A DNA stretch of 64,000 nucleotides, from contig JAFAQT010000427.1 in the NCBI GenBank assembly GCA_019246215.1, forward strand, positions 12,882-76,881. Reading direction: 5' to 3'. The notes beneath the pieces are model-generated. The model was not told the origin of the DNA and ran no database searches. It saw only the letters and a program-made list of their open reading frames with translations. The translations under genes were made by a program, and so were the position numbers. Numbering within the stretch: the stretch's first letter is position 1; each line of letters begins with the position of its first letter. Positions 46,667 through 56,064 of the stretch are shown one piece after another. This DNA comes from Verrucomicrobiota bacterium. GTDB lineage: Bacteria; Verrucomicrobiota; Verrucomicrobiia; Chthoniobacterales; JAFAMB01.

Positions 46667-47722
46667 CTAGTCGCTGTCCCGGAAGCGTTGCGCATCTTCT
46701 CGGTTCGCCGGCGCAAAGAGCGGAAGCCTTTGTTGAAGATAAGTCGGATGTTCGGCTGCGGTGATTGTTACCGAGATCTCTTTTCCCTCCCGGAGAACGG
46801 TGATTGGGACATCTTCGTCGGCAGTCAGAAAAAATGAAGCGTTGAGGACGTCAGGTGGGGAGTGTATTGCCATCGAGCCAATCCGGAGCAGAACATCCCC
46901 GGGCTGCAGGCCCGAATCTGCCCCAGGGGATCCCTCGGCGAAACTCTGAATCACGACCGACGAGTCATGCACGAGTTCATCGGATTCGATGACATTTACT
47001 CCTACCCATCCCGGTCTAACTTCTCCGAATCGGACGTAGTCTGTTCGGACTTTTTGCGCCGCTTTCATCGGGAGGGCATAACAAGCTGTCCGATTGTCGA
47101 TTGGAAAAATCAGGATGCCCACCACTTCGCCTTTCAAATTCAGGACAGGAGCACCGGCCTCGCCTCGCTGCGCGGCGATGTTCGCCCGAATTAAGGTGGT
47201 ACTGAAATATTGGTTCAAATACTTAAGGTCAAAACCGCCGATCATTCCGAACGTTGGCGTGACCGAAAGGTCCATCGGATATCCGATTGCTACGACCGGA
47301 GACGCCATTTTCAATTCATCTGAATCACCGATTGGCAGCCACGGCGTGGTGGCGGTGAGTCGGAGAATTGCAATCCCGCTGCGAGCATCGGCAACGAGAC
47401 GTTCGGCCGGATAACGGTTCACACCAAATTCGACGACGATATCCCGAGATTCGCCTCCCACCGCGTAGGCAGTCATGATTGTGCCGCTGGGATCGATGAA
47501 AAAGCCGGTGCCGGCCAACTTGCCATGTTCGTCCTCTGCCTCGATACGAACAACGGCATTTTTTGCGCTGTCGAAGACCCTCGCAACTTCGGACGAGATC
47601 GAGTCTAAACCTTGCTGCGCAAGGAGCGGCGCTGCTCCAAGCATCAAAAGAACCATGCCCATGTTCAGAGCCTTATACCGGCGGAAGCTCTGCACAGGCC
47701 TACTGCCAAGAAATTCCAACAT
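46667..47722 (-). CDS. HtrA/DegP-family trypsin-fold + PDZ protein, predicted catalytically inactive
   Basis: Signal peptide (MGMVLLMLGAAPLLAQQ). Protease-fold blocks: GTGFFIDPSGTIMTAYAV, SGIAILRL, GEAGAPVLNLKGEVVGI. PDZ: GWVGVNV...GLQPGDVLLRIG. By-eye alignment to DegP places Ala, Gly and Ala at the His, Asp and Ser triad positions. Confidence 0.8.
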   Translation of the reverse strand: MLEFLGSRPVQSFRRYKALNMGMVLLMLGAAPLLAQQGLDSISSEVARVFDSAKNAVVRIEAEDEHGKLAGTGFFIDPSGTIMTAYAVGGESRDIVVEFGVNRYPAERLVADARSGIAILRLTATTPWLPIGDSDELKMASPVVAIGYPMDLSVTPTFGMIGGFDLKYLNQYFSTTLIRANIAAQRGEAGAPVLNLKGEVVGILIFPIDNRTACYALPMKAAQKVRTDYVRFGEVRPGWVGVNVIESDELVHDSSVVIQSFAEGSPGADSGLQPGDVLLRIGSMAIHSPPDVLNASFFLTADEDVPITVLREGKEISVTITAAEHPTYLQQRLPLFAPANREDAQRFRDSD

Positions 47723-47727
47723 TAAGG

Positions 47728-48222
47728 TTAAAAGCTGAACGAAGCTTCGTAACTGACGGGTCTGCCGTCGAGGACATAGCGGGGAAGCGCTGTTTGAGAA
47801 GGCCGGACAACGGGAACGACATGAGGCGAAACTGAAGAAGGATTAAAGTTGGACCAGTCCACATTTCCGCTCAACGCCAATCGGTACGAGGAGCGTTCGA
47901 TCACTGGACTGGACGCTACTTTTGCCAGATTGGAACTGGTCCCGACCATCTCCTTGTAAGGAGCCCAAACACCTGAACCGACGATCGTGGCAGCCACGAG
48001 AAAAGCGGCAAATGCTGCCCCATACGCGTAAGTCGGAACCCGGAAGCTCCAAAGACTCGAAAGGAAACGCTCAAACCAGATTTGCACTGCCGGCCGCCGC
48101 AATAGGTCCTGGCGCTGGCGTCGATGGAATTCGTTCAGGGTACGGTCGAAATATCCTGGGGGCGGCTGCTCGAATCGTTTGAGCCGGAGCAATTTCTGGA
48201 GCTGTTGTTCGTCGAGCATCAT
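47728..48222 (-). CDS. Putative anti-sigma factor (single-pass membrane protein)
   Basis: 4-nt overlap with the upstream ECF sigma gene. Cytoplasmic N-terminus, one TM helix (YAYGAAFAAFLVAATIVGSGVW), and a ~75-aa periplasmic tail ending ...YEASFSF. No zf-HC2 motif. The call rests on context only. Confidence 0.45.
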   Translation of the reverse strand: MMLDEQQLQKLLRLKRFEQPPPGYFDRTLNEFHRRQRQDLLRRPAVQIWFERFLSSLWSFRVPTYAYGAAFAAFLVAATIVGSGVWAPYKEMVGTSSNLAKVASSPVIERSSYRLALSGNVDWSNFNPSSVSPHVVPVVRPSQTALPRYVLDGRPVSYEASFSF

Positions 48223-48806
48223 TTCTTTCTAAACTCCTCAAGGTAATTCTGCAACTGCCGATGTGCATAGAAGAGCCGAGAGCGTACGGTAGCCTCGGGA
48301 ACTCCGAGGATTTTCGCAATCTCCGCGTGTGCCATGCCTTGAATGTCAAACATTGTCACCACTGCTCTATGCTCAACAGACAGCTTCATCATCGCTTCGT
48401 TCAATCTGTGTTGAAGTTCCGAAAGATCTACTTCGCGAACCGGGGTGTTCGCAGCCGTTAAATCAATGAACTCCTTGTCATTCTGCACATTGGCGTCCAA
48501 GTCGTCCAGACTCATCTGAAAACGGCGCCCACGTTTCTTTACGAAGTTAATCGTCATGTTCACCGCGATGGCATGGATCCAGGTGTAAAAACTGGACTTG
48601 CCTCGGAAGCCGTTGATCGATCGATACGCTTTGGCAAAAACTTCGAGTAGCAGATCGTTCGCGTCCTCATGGTTGGCCGTCATGTTGTAGATCAGCGAAT
48701 AAATCCGAGGGCTGTATTTTTTCCAAAGAAGGTCGAAGGCCCGAGTGTCGCCGCTCTGCGTCTGGCGAACCAACGCTTCATCGTCGGGCAAGTTCTGGTC
48801 GTCCAT
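48219..48806 (-). CDS. ECF-type RNA polymerase sigma-70 factor
   Basis: Region 2: FDLLWKKYSPRIYSLIYNMT.NHEDANDLLLEVFAKAYRSI..F....SFYTWIHAIAVN. Region 4: LSVEHRAVVTMFDIQGMAHAEIAKILGVPEATVRSRLFYAHRQL. Start at ATG 48806 or 48842. The track start at 48980 would overlap pal and is rejected. Confidence 0.9.
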   Translation of the reverse strand: MDDQNLPDDEALVRQTQSGDTRAFDLLWKKYSPRIYSLIYNMTANHEDANDLLLEVFAKAYRSINGFRGKSSFYTWIHAIAVNMTINFVKKRGRRFQMSLDDLDANVQNDKEFIDLTAANTPVREVDLSELQHRLNEAMMKLSVEHRAVVTMFDIQGMAHAEIAKILGVPEATVRSRLFYAHRQLQNYLEEFRKK

Positions 48807-48894
48807 TAACCCTTTGCTCTGCAATAGCGGATCAAACCCCATGAAGGCAGAGAAGGAAAGGGAAAACGGAAAACCGGATTTGCGGCCGCTGCGA

Positions 48895-49389
48895 TCAACG
48901 GACGACGCCACTTTCGACCCGGCGATTTTTCGCCCATGCGGATTCGTCATGTCCGGGATCGGCGGGCATTTCCTGGCCAAAACTCACTGTCTGGATGCGG
49001 CTTGCCGACACACCGAGCGAGAGCAGAAAATTTCTTGTGGCCTGAGCCCGGCGTTCCCCAAGTCCGCGATTGTATTCAGGGGTGCCCCTCTCATCCGTGA
49101 ATCCCGCAAGGATGATGTTATTGTGAGCGGTCTTCAAAAAACTCCCAATCTGTTTGAGCTTGGTTCCTTCATCAGGAGATATTTCAAAGCTGTCGAAAGC
49201 AAAATAGATGGGCTGAAATTGTCCCTTTGCGACGTTGTTGCTGAAGAACGAGACACCTTCCTGGCGTGGTGGAAGAGGCGTGCCGTTCACGTAGTCTCCT
49301 TGCGGTCCCGAGTACTCCTGTTTTTGCGGTTTTTGGCAGGCGGCAAGGCTCAGGGCCACCAAACAACTCAAAGCTGGTATTCCTTTCAT
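48895..49389 (-). CDS. pal: Peptidoglycan-associated lipoprotein (OmpA-family, Pal)
   Basis: Lipobox LSLAAC. OmpA-like domain: IYFAFDSFEISPDEGTKL...ILAGFTDERGTPEYNRGLGERRAQATRNFL...GVSASRIQTVSFGQEMP. Directly follows tolB. Confidence 0.88.
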   Translation of the reverse strand: MKGIPALSCLVALSLAACQKPQKQEYSGPQGDYVNGTPLPPRQEGVSFFSNNVAKGQFQPIYFAFDSFEISPDEGTKLKQIGSFLKTAHNNIILAGFTDERGTPEYNRGLGERRAQATRNFLLSLGVSASRIQTVSFGQEMPADPGHDESAWAKNRRVESGVVR

Positions 49390-49412
49390 TGTGCTCACAA
49401 AGACGTTTTTTT

Positions 49413-50567
49413 TCAACGGGACCAAGTCGGCTCGGAAATTTGTCCGAGATCGCTTACCAGGCGCGTCTCGCGGCCGGTAACAGTATCAAACAAATAAAGA
49501 CCGGTCCCTCTTGGAAGGATGATGTGTCGCGAATCGGGGCCCCAAACCGGGTTCCCGCCATTAGCTACAGCCACACGGGTTGCCCCTGAGTCGAAGTCGA
49601 GTATTGCCACTTGGAATCCGCCGCCGCTCCTGATATTAAAAGCGATTTTCCGGCCGTCCGCTGACCAATTAGGCTGTGTGTTGTAGCCAAAACCGGTTGG
49701 CAAGAGCCGGCTCGAGCCGCCCTGAGATGAAATGCGATAGAGTTGTGGTCCTCCCTTCTCATCGGAGGAGTAGATAATTTCTGTTCCATCGGGCGACCAC
49801 GTCGGAGAGGATTCTACGCCACGGCTTCGCGTCAGGCGGCGAGGCGAGTCGCCATTGATACCGGTCACGTAGATCTCCGGGTTGCCATCTTTGCTCATCG
49901 TGCATGCAATGCGAGTTCCGTCGGGAGAGATTGCGGCGCCCGAGTTGGTTCCGGGGAATTTGATGATGCGATTGCGGGCTCCGCTGGTCAGATCGACCAG
50001 GTAAATATCAGCATAGCCGCTCTGATAGCCGGTATAAGCAAGCCGCCGACCATCTGCGGACAATGCCGGGCTAACACTGATTGCGCCGTCGTGCGTCAGT
50101 TGGAGCGTCCGCGCTCCGTCATAGTCGCAGGTATAAATTTCTTTGTGGCCGCTTCGATCAGCTACGAAAGCAACCTTCGAGAGCGCAATCCCTTTCTGAC
50201 CTGTCACCGTCTCGATCAGGTCATTTGTAAACTGGTGAACGGCGTGCCGGGTCTCCCCCGGGTAACTTTTTTGCAAAACGATGCCACCGGATTTCTCGGT
50301 GGCCAGTCCGTTGAAAGAACCGGGCGAGGCGGTGCCGCTGACCGTGATAGTGGCTGTGGCCGCGTTAGCTGGATATAACGCACCAGAGAGCTGTATGTCG
50401 CTTTTCAAGATGCTAGTGGCCTCACGCCCTGCTTGGCCGCTGATCTCTTTAACCTCGACTTGTTGTGAGGTCCCTTTGTGAACCGTTATCACGGGTGCAC
50501 CGGAATCTTGGCCAAACAGAGCGGTTGCGAAACAAAGGGAGAGAACAACCAATGGCGAAACGTTCAT
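49413..50567 (-). CDS. tolB: Tol-Pal system beta-propeller protein TolB
   Basis: Signal peptide from ATG 50567 (MNVSPLVVLSLCFATALFGQ). Repeated PD40/WD40-like blades (SPALSADGRRLAY, ISPDGTRIA, PTWSPDGTEIIY, PNWSADGRKIAF). Upstream of pal. Confidence 0.88.
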   Translation of the reverse strand: MNVSPLVVLSLCFATALFGQDSGAPVITVHKGTSQQVEVKEISGQAGREATSILKSDIQLSGALYPANAATATITVSGTASPGSFNGLATEKSGGIVLQKSYPGETRHAVHQFTNDLIETVTGQKGIALSKVAFVADRSGHKEIYTCDYDGARTLQLTHDGAISVSPALSADGRRLAYTGYQSGYADIYLVDLTSGARNRIIKFPGTNSGAAISPDGTRIACTMSKDGNPEIYVTGINGDSPRRLTRSRGVESSPTWSPDGTEIIYSSDEKGGPQLYRISSQGGSSRLLPTGFGYNTQPNWSADGRKIAFNIRSGGGFQVAILDFDSGATRVAVANGGNPVWGPDSRHIILPRGTGLYLFDTVTGRETRLVSDLGQISEPTWSR

Positions 50568-51654: not shown

Positions 51655-52658
51655 GCTTGGAGCGACTTGTCGATCAAACCCGTGAGCGTTTTCCGCATTA
51701 TGACAAATCAAATGTTGAAATTCTGCCGCTCGAAAAAGGTGGCTCCGACCGAAGCTATTATCGTGTGCGCTTCAGCACGGACCATTCACTGATCCTTGTA
51801 ACGTACAATCCCGAGAAACCAGAAAACGAACGGTTCGTTGCCATCGCCAAGTTCCTAAATGAGATCGGGGTAAACGCGCCTTTCATCTACCATCATGACC
51901 ACCTTCAAGGTCTGATCTGGATGCAGGATCTGGGCGAAGAAGATCTCTGGCACTACCGCAATGAGCCTTGGGGCACTCGACGCCGCTTTTATGAAGCTGC
52001 CCTAGACCAGATAGGGTTATTGCACAGCTCCGATCCGGACTCCGGGAAAAAGCTGCACCTGCAATCCTGCTTCGACGAATCGCTTTATCGGTGGGAACAA
52101 AATTACTGCTTGCAGAATTGTTTCGGGCTTTATTTCCAGCTTCCGGCAACCGAAATAGATAAGCTGCGGCGACATGCGGCATTCGATAATCTCGCCAAAC
52201 GATTAGCTTCCTATCAAAGAGTTTTGGTCCACCGCGATTTTCAATCGCAGAACATCATCGTCTGGAACGAACAACTATACTTGATCGATTTCCAGGGGCT
52301 ACGCCCCGGGTTGCGTCAATATGATCTGGCCTCCCTCTTGTTCGATCCGTACGTCACCTTCGTTCATCAGGAACGCGAGCACCTTTTCCAATATTACTTT
52401 GAACGGAATGACCATGGCTGCACGTTGCCGGAGTTTGAGCGAGTATATCTAGACTGCGGGATTCAACGTCTGATGCAGGCACTCGGCGCCTATGGCGTGC
52501 TTGGAGTACTACGGGAAAAGAAGGAATTCCTGCGCCATATTCGACCCGCGATAAAAACGTTGATCGAGGTTGCGTCCGCCGCAGAGAACTTTAGCTTCTT
52601 TGCAGAATTTTTAACTGGTCTTCCGGACAGACCTAAACCCCAGGATCGACTCGCGTGA
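51651..52658 (+). CDS. Aminoglycoside-phosphotransferase-fold anomeric sugar kinase (AmgK-like)
   Basis: APH/choline-kinase catalytic loop: LVHRDFQSQNIIVWNEQLYLIDFQG...YDLASLLFDPY. 4-nt overlap with the upstream nucleotidyltransferase gene. Confidence 0.6.
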   Translation: MSLERLVDQTRERFPHYDKSNVEILPLEKGGSDRSYYRVRFSTDHSLILVTYNPEKPENERFVAIAKFLNEIGVNAPFIYHHDHLQGLIWMQDLGEEDLWHYRNEPWGTRRRFYEAALDQIGLLHSSDPDSGKKLHLQSCFDESLYRWEQNYCLQNCFGLYFQLPATEIDKLRRHAAFDNLAKRLASYQRVLVHRDFQSQNIIVWNEQLYLIDFQGLRPGLRQYDLASLLFDPYVTFVHQEREHLFQYYFERNDHGCTLPEFERVYLDCGIQRLMQALGAYGVLGVLREKKEFLRHIRPAIKTLIEVASAAENFSFFAEFLTGLPDRPKPQDRLA

Positions 52659-54655
52659 CCACAAAAAAGACCGATTTAGAACGGTTACAAACCGTTGTCA
52701 TAGAAAATCTTGAGCCTTGCATCGACGCAGGGCGTTATCCCATTAAGAGGGTTATTGGCCAAGAGCTGAACGTTTCAGCCGACATTTTCAAGGATGGTCA
52801 TGATCAGCTTTCGGCTAATCTCAAATGGCGAAAGGCAACCAGTACAGATTGGAACCGGACACCGATGAAGCCGACCGAAAATGACCGATGGGAAGGCGTT
52901 TGTCATTTCATCGAAAATGCGCCCCACGAATACACCATTGAGGCTTGGGAGGATCACTTCAAATCGTGGCAGGTCGAATATGCCAAGAAGTACGGCGCCG
53001 GGAACACGGACCTCAGAACTGAACTCGAGGAAGGCGCGATTCTCGTGGCAAAGGCTGCTGAACGTGCTAGGCGCAAAGACGACCAGAAACGTTTAGCGCT
53101 CTTTTCGCAGCAACTGAAAAATGCAGATGCTCATTTTGGTGCCCAATTGGCTAAAAATCCTGAATTGACGGGATTAATGGGTGCGTGGCCCGATCTCGAT
53201 CTGAGCACGGAACTGCGCCCTTATCTTCGAGTGACCGTGGATCGCTCGGAAGCGCTCTTTGCGGCCTGGTACGAATTTTTCCCGCGCTCTGCAGACGGTA
53301 AGCCGAATACCGGGTCGAAGTTTCGCGATTGCCTAGGCCGAATCGACGATGCAAAAGCGATGGGTTTCGATGTTATCTATTTTCCTCCGATTCATCCGAT
53401 CGGATTTACGAAGCGAAAAGGGAAAAATAATTCTACCACCAGTGAACCGGGCGATCCCGGTGTCCCCTACGCAATCGGCAGCCAGTTTGGTGGCCACAAA
53501 GCTGTAGAACCAGAACTCGGCACGTTGGACGATTTTGATTGGCTCGTGGATGAGGTGCACGCAAGAGGGATGGAAATTGCGCTAGATTTTGCGATCAACT
53601 GTTCTCCGGACCATCCTTATGTTAAAGAGCATCCTGACTGGTTTTTTCATCGTCCAGACGGATCCATCAAATATGCTGAAAATCCGCCCAAAAAGTATGA
53701 GGATGTTTATCCGCTGAATTTCTATAATCCTGACTGGAAGAATCTCTGGGAGGAAATGAAGGAGGTGATTCTTTTCTGGGTACGCCACGGAGTTCGCATT
53801 TTCCGCGTGGACAATCCGCATACCAAACCGAACTCTTTTTGGGAATGGATGATATCGGAAGTCCAGAGGGATTATCCGGATGTGATTTTTCTGGCGGAAG
53901 CCTTCACGCGGCCCAAGATGATGAAGGCGCTAGCGAAGGGAGGGTTTACACAATCTTACACCTACTTCACATGGCGAAATACCAAATGGGAACTGAGTGA
54001 GTACCTCTCTGAACTTACTCAGACAGAAATGAAGTATTACTTCCGCGCGAACTTTTTTCCGAATACACCGGATATTTTGCCGTTCTTCTTGCAGACGGGC
54101 GGCCGCCCTGCTTTTTTGATTCGCGCCGTTCTTGCTGCGACGTTGAGCACTGTGTATGGCATCTACAGCGGGTTTGAGCTATGTGAAAATGTCGCGGTTT
54201 CGGGCAAAGAAGAATATCTCAATTCGGAAAAATACCAGTTCAAAGAACGGGATTGGAATGCACCCGGCAATATCAAAGATTACATCGCAAAGCTAAACGC
54301 GATTCGGCGTGCTAACCGCGCGATGCACGAATACGAGAATCTCCGATTCCATACCGTCGAAAACGAACACATATTATTCTACTCCAAGGCGACAGAAGCC
54401 CTCGACAACATCATCCTGGTTCTGGTCAGTGTCGATCCGTTCAATCCGCAGAGCGGATTTGCCTATGTCCCGGTGGAAAATTTCCAGATCGACGTCGCGG
54501 ATTCATACCAGGTCGAGGATCTGATAACGGGCGAGAAATTCACTTGGCGCGGGCGCCGGAATTTCGTGATGCTCGATCCAAATTCTCGTCCTGCACATAT
54601 CTTTCGCATCCGGCGTCTGATCGGGATGGATGGAGCGCAAATGATCTTCGCATGA
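52655..54655 (+). CDS. glgE: Alpha-1,4-glucan:maltose-1-phosphate maltosyltransferase
   Basis: GlgE N-terminal domain: IDAGRYPIKRVIGQELNVSADIFKDGHDQLSANLKWRK. GH13 core: IYFPPIHPIG...GSQFGGH...LGTLDDFDWLV...GMEIALDFA...HPDWF...FRVDNPHTKP..FWEW...FLAEAFTRP. Confidence 0.85.
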   Translation: MTTKKTDLERLQTVVIENLEPCIDAGRYPIKRVIGQELNVSADIFKDGHDQLSANLKWRKATSTDWNRTPMKPTENDRWEGVCHFIENAPHEYTIEAWEDHFKSWQVEYAKKYGAGNTDLRTELEEGAILVAKAAERARRKDDQKRLALFSQQLKNADAHFGAQLAKNPELTGLMGAWPDLDLSTELRPYLRVTVDRSEALFAAWYEFFPRSADGKPNTGSKFRDCLGRIDDAKAMGFDVIYFPPIHPIGFTKRKGKNNSTTSEPGDPGVPYAIGSQFGGHKAVEPELGTLDDFDWLVDEVHARGMEIALDFAINCSPDHPYVKEHPDWFFHRPDGSIKYAENPPKKYEDVYPLNFYNPDWKNLWEEMKEVILFWVRHGVRIFRVDNPHTKPNSFWEWMISEVQRDYPDVIFLAEAFTRPKMMKALAKGGFTQSYTYFTWRNTKWELSEYLSELTQTEMKYYFRANFFPNTPDILPFFLQTGGRPAFLIRAVLAATLSTVYGIYSGFELCENVAVSGKEEYLNSEKYQFKERDWNAPGNIKDYIAKLNAIRRANRAMHEYENLRFHTVENEHILFYSKATEALDNIILVLVSVDPFNPQSGFAYVPVENFQIDVADSYQVEDLITGEKFTWRGRRNFVMLDPNSRPAHIFRIRRLIGMDGAQMIFA

Positions 54656-56064
54656 GAAAGGCTGTCTGGTTCGGGATTTTTGTTGCGGCATTCCTGTTTG
54701 GGTGTGGCCAGTCCAAAGAACAGGCGATTCAGGAATTGGAGAGATTGAACCTGAAATTTGCGCCAGATGATTTTGTGCAGTCGGCGGAAAAAGGGGATGT
54801 CAAGGCGATCCAACTCTTTTTGAATGCGGGTATCGACTGCGATGTTCAAAACGCCACGGGGTCTACGGCTCTAATGGCCGCTGCAAAAAATGGGCGAATC
54901 GAAGTGGTGAAGAAGTTGCTGGACCAGAAAGTGGATGTGAATGCCGTGGGTAAACAGGGAGTAACTGCTCTCATGCTGGCGGCGCAGAATAATCAAGTCG
55001 AGATCGTTAAGCTGCTTTTGAAAAAGAATGCGGATCCGAATGTGGAGGACCAAACCGGATGGTCGGCTCTGATGAAGGCCGTCTACCAAGGAAACACAGA
55101 TTGCGTAGCAGCTCTCGCCGCACGGTCGCGGCAGGAAGTGAATCGAGGATTGCTCATCGCCGCATTGACCGGGCATAAAGAGATCGCGAAGATCTTGCTC
55201 GACAATGGAGCCGAGATAGACACCCGAGCGGATGACGGACGGACTCCTTTGATGCTCGCGGCGGGCAAGGGTGACAACGATCTTGTGTCGTTTCTGTTGC
55301 AGGCCGGCGCCGATCCAACCCGCACTGATAAATCCGGTGCGACTGCAAGTTCCCTGGCGATCGCAAAGGGTTATAAAGTAATAGCAGATCGGTTAGAGAA
55401 GGCGCCGGTACCGCCGAGCGTCAATGCTTCCCCTTCAAATGCAGTCGCAACCCGCAATAGTTCGAAGCCAACTGGGGTAATGTCAGATCAGGATCTCCTC
55501 TCTCAACCGGAAGAAAGAAAGAGTTCTGTTTCCGATTCTCGCCGGACCGCTAACCCGGGAAACTCTGCCAAGGTGCCGGGCGATTCTGTTCAGACCAAAC
55601 CTGCTACCGTTATGGAGATCGAGCAGGAGTTTCTCCCGGTGAAACTCACCGAGGTCAACGGGAAAAAGGCAATGATTCAAGCTGCTGACGGAGAAAAATA
55701 CAGCGTTGCGATCGGAGACCAGTTGAAGGGTCTGGATTATAAGGTGACCGATGTTGTCATGCGCAGCACGGAAGACAAAGATGGCAATCCAGTGGATGAC
55801 TCCATCGTCAAGCTGCGAAATACGAAATCTGGGCAGTCTGTTGCGCTCATCAAAGGCGTGCCTGCACAGGAACACGCTGCGTACGCGATACTCGCTTTTC
55901 CTGGCTCTGATCAGACGCTAAAAATTGAAGTGGACCAAACTTTCTCGATTCCTGGGGATCCCGGTCACACCTACATAGTTTTGGATATTCGCCCGACACA
56001 GGTCATCATCCGGCGGATCGAGGACAATCGCGTCTCCACGCTGGAAAAAAAATCTCATAGCTGA
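54652..56064 (+). CDS. Ankyrin-repeat lipoprotein with a C-terminal beta-rich domain
   Basis: The ATG overlaps the glgE stop (ATGA). Signal/lipobox: MRKAVWFGIFVAAFLFGCG. About six or seven ankyrin repeats (e.g. GSTALMAAAKNGRIEVVKKLLDQKVDVN, GVTALMLAAQNNQVEIVKLLLKKNADPN, GRTPLMLAAGKGDNDLVSFLLQAGADP). These are followed by a Ser/Pro linker and a ~150-aa domain. Confidence 0.8.
   Translation: MRKAVWFGIFVAAFLFGCGQSKEQAIQELERLNLKFAPDDFVQSAEKGDVKAIQLFLNAGIDCDVQNATGSTALMAAAKNGRIEVVKKLLDQKVDVNAVGKQGVTALMLAAQNNQVEIVKLLLKKNADPNVEDQTGWSALMKAVYQGNTDCVAALAARSRQEVNRGLLIAALTGHKEIAKILLDNGAEIDTRADDGRTPLMLAAGKGDNDLVSFLLQAGADPTRTDKSGATASSLAIAKGYKVIADRLEKAPVPPSVNASPSNAVATRNSSKPTGVMSDQDLLSQPEERKSSVSDSRRTANPGNSAKVPGDSVQTKPATVMEIEQEFLPVKLTEVNGKKAMIQAADGEKYSVAIGDQLKGLDYKVTDVVMRSTEDKDGNPVDDSIVKLRNTKSGQSVALIKGVPAQEHAAYAILAFPGSDQTLKIEVDQTFSIPGDPGHTYIVLDIRPTQVIIRRIEDNRVSTLEKKSHS

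Follow-up and report, generated by a model that had tools for sequence, protein, structure and literature searches.

A conserved HtrA homologue without a catalytic triad as the proposed third component of an ECF sigma/anti-sigma cassette in Verrucomicrobiota

Introduction

On the minus strand of a 64,000-nucleotide stretch of Verrucomicrobiota DNA (contig JAFAQT010000427.1; we refer to the whole stretch as the window), a gene for an HtrA homologue that lacks all three residues of the catalytic triad directly follows the genes for an extracytoplasmic function (ECF) sigma factor and a putative transmembrane anti-sigma factor. The best explanation that we can offer for this protein, which we call pseudo-HtrA, is that it serves as the non-catalytic periplasmic third component of a verrucomicrobial envelope-stress module made up of the ECF sigma factor, the membrane anti-sigma factor and the dead HtrA. 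In our full protector/sensor model, pseudo-HtrA would bind the C-terminal tail of the anti-sigma factor without cleaving it and in this way shield the anti-sigma factor; we put the probability of this model at roughly one half. What is novel here is the tail, which is conserved and similar to the C-termini of outer membrane proteins (OMPs); it lies just outside the gene that the first-pass annotation of this DNA had singled out.

HtrA proteases and pairs of ECF sigma and anti-sigma factors belong to the textbook machinery of bacterial envelope-stress signaling. To our knowledge, the HtrA member works by cutting in every case that has been studied, and we know of no envelope-stress sensing mechanism in Verrucomicrobiota. 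Both HtrA pseudoproteases and HtrA genes located in sigma factor operons are already known, the former in unrelated roles and the latter as active enzymes. In the part of the literature that we searched, we found no account of an ECF cassette that regularly includes a triad-less HtrA, nor of an anti-sigma factor whose C-terminus is OMP-like. In the present case catalysis has been given up by a whole widespread clade in which fold, PDZ domain and operon position all persist.

All three catalytic residues are substituted in pseudo-HtrA

Pseudo-HtrA is a protein of 351 amino acids encoded by the open reading frame (ORF) 46667..47722 (minus strand). It matches the Pfam models Trypsin_2 (residues 71-203, E-value 2.4e-17) and PDZ_2 (residues 241-321, E-value 1.9e-10), and the matches to PDZ_2, PDZ_6 and PDZ together span residues 236-321. 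The best NCBIfam model is TIGR02037 (degP_htrA_DO), which gives 136.3 bits and stays below its curated cut-off of 416.2; the DegS model (TIGR02038 / PRK10898) gives 88 bits against a cut-off of 423, and the protein scores far under the cut-offs of the DegS, DegQ, DegP, MamE and MamO models altogether. Because of these scores, we consider pseudo-HtrA a clear HtrA homologue that is a poor fit to any named HtrA. A hydrophobic segment near the N-terminus (residues ~18-35) may be a signal peptide that is cleaved off, or else may anchor the protein in the membrane as in DegS. It is followed by a trypsin-fold (protease-like) domain (47027..47554, minus strand; residues ~57-232, as delimited by hhalign and by the secondary structure of an AlphaFold2 model) and by a PDZ domain (46748..47017, minus strand; residues ~236-325), for which the predicted local distance difference test score (pLDDT) is ~97.

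Alignment with phmmer to the solved DegP-like, MucD and DegQ chains places TAYAV on TNNHV, RSGIAIL on R(S/T)DVAVL and GEAGAP on GNSGGP. The catalytic His column is therefore occupied by Ala87 (codon GCG, 47462..47464), the Asp column by Gly116 (codon GGG, 47375..47377) and the Ser column by Ala189 (codon GCC, 47156..47158), with all three codons read directly on the minus strand. A profile-profile comparison of 74 family members with 13 canonical triad-bearing HtrAs returns the identical triad columns (hhalign probability 100%, E-value 4e-59). The first-pass annotation had proposed, by eye, a trypsin-fold domain, a PDZ domain and substitutions of His to Ala, Asp to Gly and Ser to Ala; the three substitutions are exactly those found by phmmer and hhalign, the trypsin-fold domain is borne out by Pfam, hhalign and Foldseek, and the PDZ domain by Pfam.

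The predicted structure is in line with these alignments. An AlphaFold2 model computed from the 74-sequence alignment has a pLDDT of 90.4 and a predicted TM-score (pTM) of 0.83; an earlier model, computed from a shallow alignment of 38 sequences, reached a pLDDT of 57 and was discarded. The best matches that Foldseek finds for the model in the PDB are DegP, DegQ, DegS, MucD, AlgW and M. tuberculosis HtrA, with TM-scores of 0.6-0.8, and the DegS-YQF complexes 3gdv and 6ew9 are among the fold matches.

One could suppose that pseudo-HtrA is a cryptic peptidase that uses non-canonical catalytic residues elsewhere in the fold, given that His66, Asp112, Ser115 and Glu188 are conserved within the close group and that a few distant members keep a Ser in the nucleophile column. 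We consider this very improbable. In the 74-sequence family alignment, which spans the clade, neither His nor Ser is invariant or nearly so at any position, and for this reason a triad placed at other residues of the protein does not come into question. His66/Asp112/Ser115 was considered as an alternative triad and rejected: His66, like Glu188, is lost in distant members, and Asp112 and Ser115 are inherited structural residues that are also found in canonical HtrAs (the DPRSD block). The oxyanion-hole motif is affected as well, GNSGG being replaced by GEAGA in the hhalign alignment.

Two further features of the domain architecture lie outside the triad. The LA loop of DegP-type HtrAs (~27 residues, or alignment columns) is missing between residues ~68 and 70 of pseudo-HtrA, as seen with hhalign. 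DegP- and DegQ-type HtrAs use this loop to form the resting hexamer; without it, the pseudo-HtrA family has, judging by the alignment, a DegS-like minimal protease domain. The regions that correspond to loops L3, LD and L1 (GYPMDL..TP.FG..GG.D.KY....F.T.LIRAN...QRGE.G.P) are unusually well conserved within Chthoniobacterales. The second feature is the carboxylate-binding loop of the PDZ domain, G238-W239-V240-G241-V242 (46997..47011, minus strand), the counterpart of RGWLGV in DegP-like proteins: the stretch R-P-G-W-V-G-V of pseudo-HtrA aligns to rGWLGV of the solved HtrAs. In the 74-sequence alignment Gly241 is invariant and Trp239 is conserved in at least 90% of the sequences; in the 38-sequence alignment Gly238, Trp239 and Gly241 are all invariant. 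Asp291 and Phe297 of the PDZ helix are likewise invariant or almost so in the family.

The triad-less clade is under purifying selection and widespread

The ratio of nonsynonymous to synonymous substitution rates (dN/dS) of the pseudo-HtrA gene is 0.04-0.06 in four of six comparisons with orthologues (79-89% identity), dS being saturated in the other two. Against the same set of orthologues it is 0.08-0.12 for the anti-sigma gene and 0.01-0.045 for the sigma gene. The loss of all three catalytic residues, together with a public annotation that still reads 'serine protease Do', might suggest a decaying pseudogene or an annotation artefact. We give this practically no weight: the intact frame, a dN/dS of ~0.05, hundreds of orthologues and a confidently predicted fold effectively refute it.

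The loss of the triad is not confined to the window. The best 120 database homologues (57-100% identity) all come from metagenome-assembled genomes (MAGs) of Verrucomicrobiota, and in none of them do the triad columns hold His, Asp or Ser; counted over the close homologues, the triad is missing from 121 of 121, and His-Asp-Ser is not found in any of the 83 homologues that are linked to the cassette described below (0/83) either. An exhaustive search of representatives of 50%-identity clusters follows the family down to ~30% identity. The best 120 such representatives with coverage of all three columns comprise 108 without the triad and 12 with His-Asp-Ser, the first canonical protein appearing only at rank 108 with an E-value of ~1e-33. 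The residues that replace the triad vary. The His column of the family holds S/T/A/E/D, and S/T/A/N and others in the 108 triad-less representatives. In the Asp column, Gly is present in 78 of the 83 cassette-linked homologues and Gly or Asn in the more distant representatives, and the Ser column is A/G/I/S/E/L across the former and G/A/I/S/V/Q across the 108 triad-less representatives.

With a 27-sequence alignment as the query, we scanned a single genome for each GTDB species and recovered at least 520 relatives of pseudo-HtrA among these representative genomes, and the best 80 of these are all from MAGs of Chthoniobacterales, Udaeobacter or 'Spartobacteria'. One distant cluster comes from the cultured Methylacidiphilum fumarolicum, M. 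kamchatkense and M. sp. Yel and another from Methylacidiphilales MAGs; the triad-less clade is found in two orders, Chthoniobacterales and Methylacidiphilales. Since pseudo-HtrA is an HtrA homologue that has a PDZ domain, has no triad and is under strong purifying selection, 'pseudoprotease', the term already chosen in the first-pass annotation, is almost certainly the right label, and the public labels 'serine protease Do' and 'S1C family serine protease' are functionally misleading for these genes. The role as a sensor or chaperone that was put forward together with this term is one that pseudo-HtrA may have.

A separate observation concerns one of the cluster representatives, P0268. It is an otherwise canonical HtrA that has His and Asp, with Ala in the nucleophile position (GNAGG), and perhaps represents an HtrA from beyond the cassette clade in which Ser was naturally replaced by Ala.

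Pseudo-HtrA belongs to a conserved three-gene cassette

The gene order on the minus strand of the window is tolB, pal, ECF sigma factor, 164-amino acid protein, dead HtrA, xseB and dxs. As read from the sequence, the stop codon of the sigma gene and the start codon of the anti-sigma gene overlap as ATGA, and 5 nt (cctta) lie between the stop codon TAA of the anti-sigma gene and the ATG of pseudo-HtrA, which is the spacing reported in the first-pass annotation. We surveyed the context of the gene in 80 GTDB species-representative loci and 3 earlier ones; together with the distant members described below, ~77 close and 6 distant loci have enough flank. Wherever the upstream flank suffices, the order is ECF sigma factor, small (~160-amino acid, single-pass) protein, dead HtrA, and the pseudo-HtrA gene stands directly after the anti-sigma gene, frequently overlapping it.

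The surroundings of the cassette, in contrast, are not kept. Flanking tolB-pal and xseB-dxs genes are confined to the closest group (at least 56% identity), while in the large Udaeobacter-like group the cassette is preceded by genes for an M24 peptidase and a Zn_peptidase_2 and followed by ligA. The same three genes are found in five distant members (29-40% identity) and in Methylacidiphilum fumarolicum in otherwise unrelated surroundings, which include genes for a polyprenyl synthase and a penicillin-binding protein, lpxI-lpxB and an OmpA-family gene. The cassette of M. fumarolicum (L091, 1-7101) is located between the lipid-A genes lpxI and lpxB and an OmpA-family gene; this is again an outer-membrane context, in a methanotroph that is cultured. 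We also checked the two nearest triad-bearing HtrAs, and in this small sample (n=2) neither adjoins a sigma factor. A cassette that is kept across the triad-less clade while its flanking genes change links pseudo-HtrA to the sigma/anti-sigma pair more firmly than the window by itself could show, and we regard a functional tie to this pair as quite likely.

Such a tie might be a loose one. Pseudo-HtrA could be a non-proteolytic periplasmic chaperone or holdase and a mere member of the regulon, co-expressed with the anti-sigma factor and making no contact with it. The HtrA fold and the PDZ domain are retained, protease-dead DegP can likewise bind unfolded envelope proteins, and there are envelope genes nearby (tolB-pal in the window, lpxB and the OmpA-family gene in Methylacidiphilum). 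It is also established that htrA-type genes are located in or beside ECF sigma operons elsewhere, as are mucD and M. tuberculosis htrA (PMC8103513, PMC10027907). However, a pure regulon member is not expected to stay beside the anti-sigma gene, often overlapping it, down to 29% identity while other neighbours change, and we judge this explanation unlikely.

Somewhat less probable again, in our estimate, is a role of pseudo-HtrA as an adaptor for, or a regulatory subunit of, an active HtrA paralogue. It would then enter mixed trimers or bring in a catalytic DegS/AlgW-like protease, and would present the tail of the anti-sigma factor through its PDZ domain for site-1 cleavage, which would make it an activator and not a protector. 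Pseudoenzymes often regulate active paralogues and HtrAs are obligate trimers built via the protease domain, the core of which is highly conserved in the pseudo-HtrA family; in plant DEG7, a degenerate HtrA protease domain serves oligomerisation (PMC3194040). Yet no active GNSGG-type HtrA is encoded in the 64-kb window or in the cassettes that we examined.

The Zn_peptidase_2 gene of the Udaeobacter-like subgroup (L018-L083) deserves a description of its own. It encodes a membrane protein (PF04298, HExxH, YugP-like; E-value 2.9e-79). In ~59 loci (e.g. L057:3060-3758, plus strand) it immediately precedes the sigma gene in the same orientation, with the M24 peptidase gene in front of it. The window contains no homologue of it (tblastn E > 1). 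The protein could be a protease particular to this lineage that has the anti-sigma factor as its target.

The 164-amino acid protein as a putative membrane anti-sigma factor

Hydropathy, conservation and the ATGA overlap mark the second protein of the cassette (164 amino acids; 47728..48222, minus strand) as a putative single-pass anti-sigma factor. It has no Pfam or NCBIfam match. The cytoplasmic N-terminus is conserved, running LLRLKRFEQPPPGYF...EFHRRQR in the window with the consensus LLRLKRxEQPPPGYFxxFLxEFHRRQR, and one transmembrane segment is predicted at residues ~66-88 by hydropathy and the alignment of 78 cassettes. In the same 78 cassettes, a poorly conserved periplasmic linker of ~55 residues contrasts with a sharply conserved last 17-18 residues.

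The protein encoded in one distant cassette (L084) helps to place the family. It carries an additional N-terminal HxxxCxxC segment that resembles the anti-sigma model zf-HC2 (E-value 5e-4, just under the gathering score), and its alignment to the window protein (E-value 3e-9) covers the conserved block at the N-terminus. Together with the ATGA coupling, this match and this alignment support the reading of the window protein as a transmembrane anti-sigma factor, presumably one with a shortened anti-sigma domain.

The putative anti-sigma factor ends in a conserved OMP-like tail

The C-terminal tail of the window protein, PRYVLDGRPVSYEASFSF-COOH (47731..47784, minus strand), has an OMP-like [FY]-x-F ending and is our proposed PDZ ligand. 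Its consensus is PRYVLDxxPVSYExxFxF-COOH. The terminal Phe is present in 77 of 77 close and 6 of 6 distant cassettes and, with two apparent exceptions included, in all of the 85 tails inspected. At position -2, 64 of the 77 close tails have Phe and 9 have Leu, Val or Ile, and the six distant tails end in FLAF, FAF, GDF, YSF, FVF and VAF. In Methylacidiphilum, where the tail is HYVIRDALTHYEAMVAF, the motif can still be recognised. As a background, a terminal Phe is found in 3.5% and an aromatic-x-Phe ending in 0.8% of the long ORFs of the same loci.

Both apparent exceptions trace to the assemblies. At L054 (4350-5966), what seemed to be a 'Rosetta-stone' fusion of the anti-sigma factor with HtrA is mimicked by a masked run of N across the junction, and the tail is still encoded. 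At L031 (4240-4960), which seemed to be tail-less, there is a frameshift inside the anti-sigma gene of the assembly and the tail sits in another frame.

A C-terminal aromatic-x-Phe is the signature of beta-barrel OMPs. The PDZ domains of DegS and AlgW bind C-terminal YxF or WVF peptides, which activate these proteases (reviewed in PMC8103513, PMC8545111). By its sequence, the tail of the anti-sigma factor resembles the OMP-type YxF ligand of these PDZ domains. A chaperone that makes no contact with the anti-sigma factor would leave this deeply conserved, PDZ-ligand-like tail unexplained.

A model for pseudo-HtrA as protector and sensor

In the protector/sensor model, the PDZ domain of pseudo-HtrA would dock onto the free C-terminus of the anti-sigma tail, and the dead substrate cleft would possibly hold the upstream PRYVLD block, in the way that DegP grips substrates at both sites. 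The tail would thus be kept by the pseudoprotease as an uncleavable 'substrate'. In the resting state, the anti-sigma factor would be shielded from periplasmic proteases and the site-2 protease, a role like that of RseB or MucB. Upon envelope stress, the C-termini of unassembled OMPs, which carry the YxF-type signal read by DegS and AlgW, would compete for the PDZ domain and free the tail; the unstructured periplasmic region could then be trimmed by other proteases and afterwards by the site-2 protease, and the sigma factor would be released. That the anti-sigma factor carries an OMP-like degron on a flexible tether held by a dead HtrA, and that its competitive displacement by OMP C-termini activates the sigma factor, would amount to a new mode of stress sensing; we advance this part of the model tentatively, as somewhat doubtful.

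Residues on the two sides of the proposed interface vary in a way that fits, weakly, a direct contact: position -1 of the tail is Lys or Arg in lineages with Glu or Asp at residues 290 and 294 of the PDZ helix, and Ser in those with Pro and Asn there. Several points have to be set against the model. This charge pairing reflects very few independent evolutionary events. When we computed mutual information with average product correction (APC) for the 18 columns of the tail against those of HtrA, the PDZ groove was not singled out; the top pairs are scattered and driven by two variable tail positions, and the scan is uninformative because phylogeny dominates the signal. The 17 conserved residues of the tail exceed a typical PDZ ligand, and so another partner is possible. 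Finally, the 164-amino acid protein of the window is assigned as an anti-sigma factor through position, topology and remote homology, and not through a family match.

If the model is true, a single pseudoenzyme merges the functions of RseB (protector) and the DegS PDZ domain (sensor), in a system spread widely through Verrucomicrobiota, among them the abundant soil group to which Udaeobacter belongs. Binding of the tail by pseudo-HtrA would show a protease-based switch evolving into a binding-based one, and would provide a concrete and testable mechanism of envelope-stress sensing for Verrucomicrobiota.

The sigma factor gene and other features of the window

The first gene of the cassette encodes an RpoE-like ECF sigma factor. 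The protein matches the Pfam models Sigma70_r2, Sigma70_r4_2 and Sigma70_ECF, with regions 2 and 4 only, as is characteristic of the ECF type; it scores 101 bits with TIGR02937, above the cut-off of 42.9, and 133 bits with the NCBIfam model RpoE_Sigma70, under the cut-off of 236. The mechanically called ORF (48219..48980, minus strand; TTG start, 253 amino acids) intrudes 86 nt into the 3' end of pal (48895-49425, minus strand). Because the orthologues begin with MDDQNLPD and the called gene in locus L001 has 195 amino acids, the comparison indicates that the real start is Met59 of this ORF, at 48806, which gives a sigma factor of 195 amino acids (48219..48806, minus strand). The spacer between pal and the sigma gene is then 88 nt and is conserved among the close orthologues (TTCTCTGCC...GTTTGATCC.CTATTGCAGAG). 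By eye, we found no ECF-type promoter motif upstream of the sigma gene that is common to the two main subgroups of the 84 loci inspected, and scans for sigma-70 promoters and terminators gave nothing above background with a bearing on the operon.

Elsewhere in the window, on the plus strand, a gene for a 506-amino acid ankyrin-repeat protein that consists almost entirely of repeats (54544-56064; Ank_2, E-value 1.2e-44) follows and overlaps the end of a GlgE-type maltosyltransferase gene (52655-54655). Ankyrin-repeat proteins are uncommon in free-living bacteria.

Comparison with known systems

The first-pass annotation had likened the position of pseudo-HtrA to those of MucD, DegS and RseB. 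The parallels with MucD and RseB hold; the one with DegS does not, since E. coli degS is located outside the rpoE operon, and the genes that really correspond in position are rseB, mucB, mucD and M. tuberculosis htrA. The E. coli system of RpoE, RseA, RseB and DegS shares with the verrucomicrobial cassette an RpoE-like ECF sigma factor that is translationally coupled to a single-pass anti-sigma factor, a third periplasmic protein encoded right after the anti-sigma gene (the rseB position) and a C-terminal aromatic-x-Phe motif as the likely signal. Like DegS, pseudo-HtrA has the HtrA fold with just one PDZ domain, and its LA loop is short. Unlike DegS, however, pseudo-HtrA has no triad and is encoded in the operon. 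In the cassette the YxF-like motif is on the anti-sigma factor itself and not only on OMPs, an RseB/MucB-family protein is lacking, and the proposed logic is one of competition and shielding instead of peptide-activated cleavage.

The AlgU-MucA-MucB-MucC-MucD system of P. aeruginosa likewise has an HtrA-family gene, mucD, within the sigma operon, and MucD (8k2y) is among the best sequence and fold matches of pseudo-HtrA. The PDZ domain of AlgW, as proposed here for pseudo-HtrA, reads C-terminal WVF or YxF signals (MucE or OMPs). Both MucD and AlgW are nevertheless active enzymes with intact triads, and MucD has two PDZ domains and degrades the activating peptides. The gene order of sigma factor, anti-sigma factor and HtrA-family protein recurs in sigE-rseA-htrA (Rv1221-Rv1223) of M. 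tuberculosis. The HtrA encoded by Rv1223, in contrast to pseudo-HtrA, is active and membrane-anchored, and M. tuberculosis RseA is cytoplasmic, with no OMP-like tail.

Three other HtrA-type domains without catalysis provide precedents for the repurposing of the fold. In MamO, an HtrA-type trypsin domain has been repurposed for a non-proteolytic role (PMC4794232). MamO belongs to another subfamily, and with 38.6 bits against the MamO cut-off of 800 there is no orthology to pseudo-HtrA; its role is in metal binding and magnetosome biomineralisation, with no link to a sigma or anti-sigma factor. PflC, a protein of the flagellar medial disk of Campylobacter, has an HtrA fold without the triad and was exapted as a binding or scaffold protein (PMC12222027); it differs from pseudo-HtrA in being a component of the flagellar-motor lattice, in having two PDZ-like domains and in its lineage and context. 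Plant DEG7 retains a degenerate HtrA protease domain for protein-protein interaction (PMC3194040), but this is the second such domain of an otherwise active protease, in a eukaryote and outside any regulatory cassette.

Pseudo-HtrA falls outside both the RseB/MucB and the DegS/AlgW families because it has no triad, its equivalog scores are far below the cut-offs and it has no MucB_RseB domain, for which neither Pfam nor NCBIfam gives a match, the fold being that of HtrA. By analogy, it is most like a hybrid of the two, similar to RseB and MucB in its position in the operon and in the protection that we propose, and to DegS and AlgW in its HtrA fold, single PDZ domain, short LA loop and YxF-type signal.

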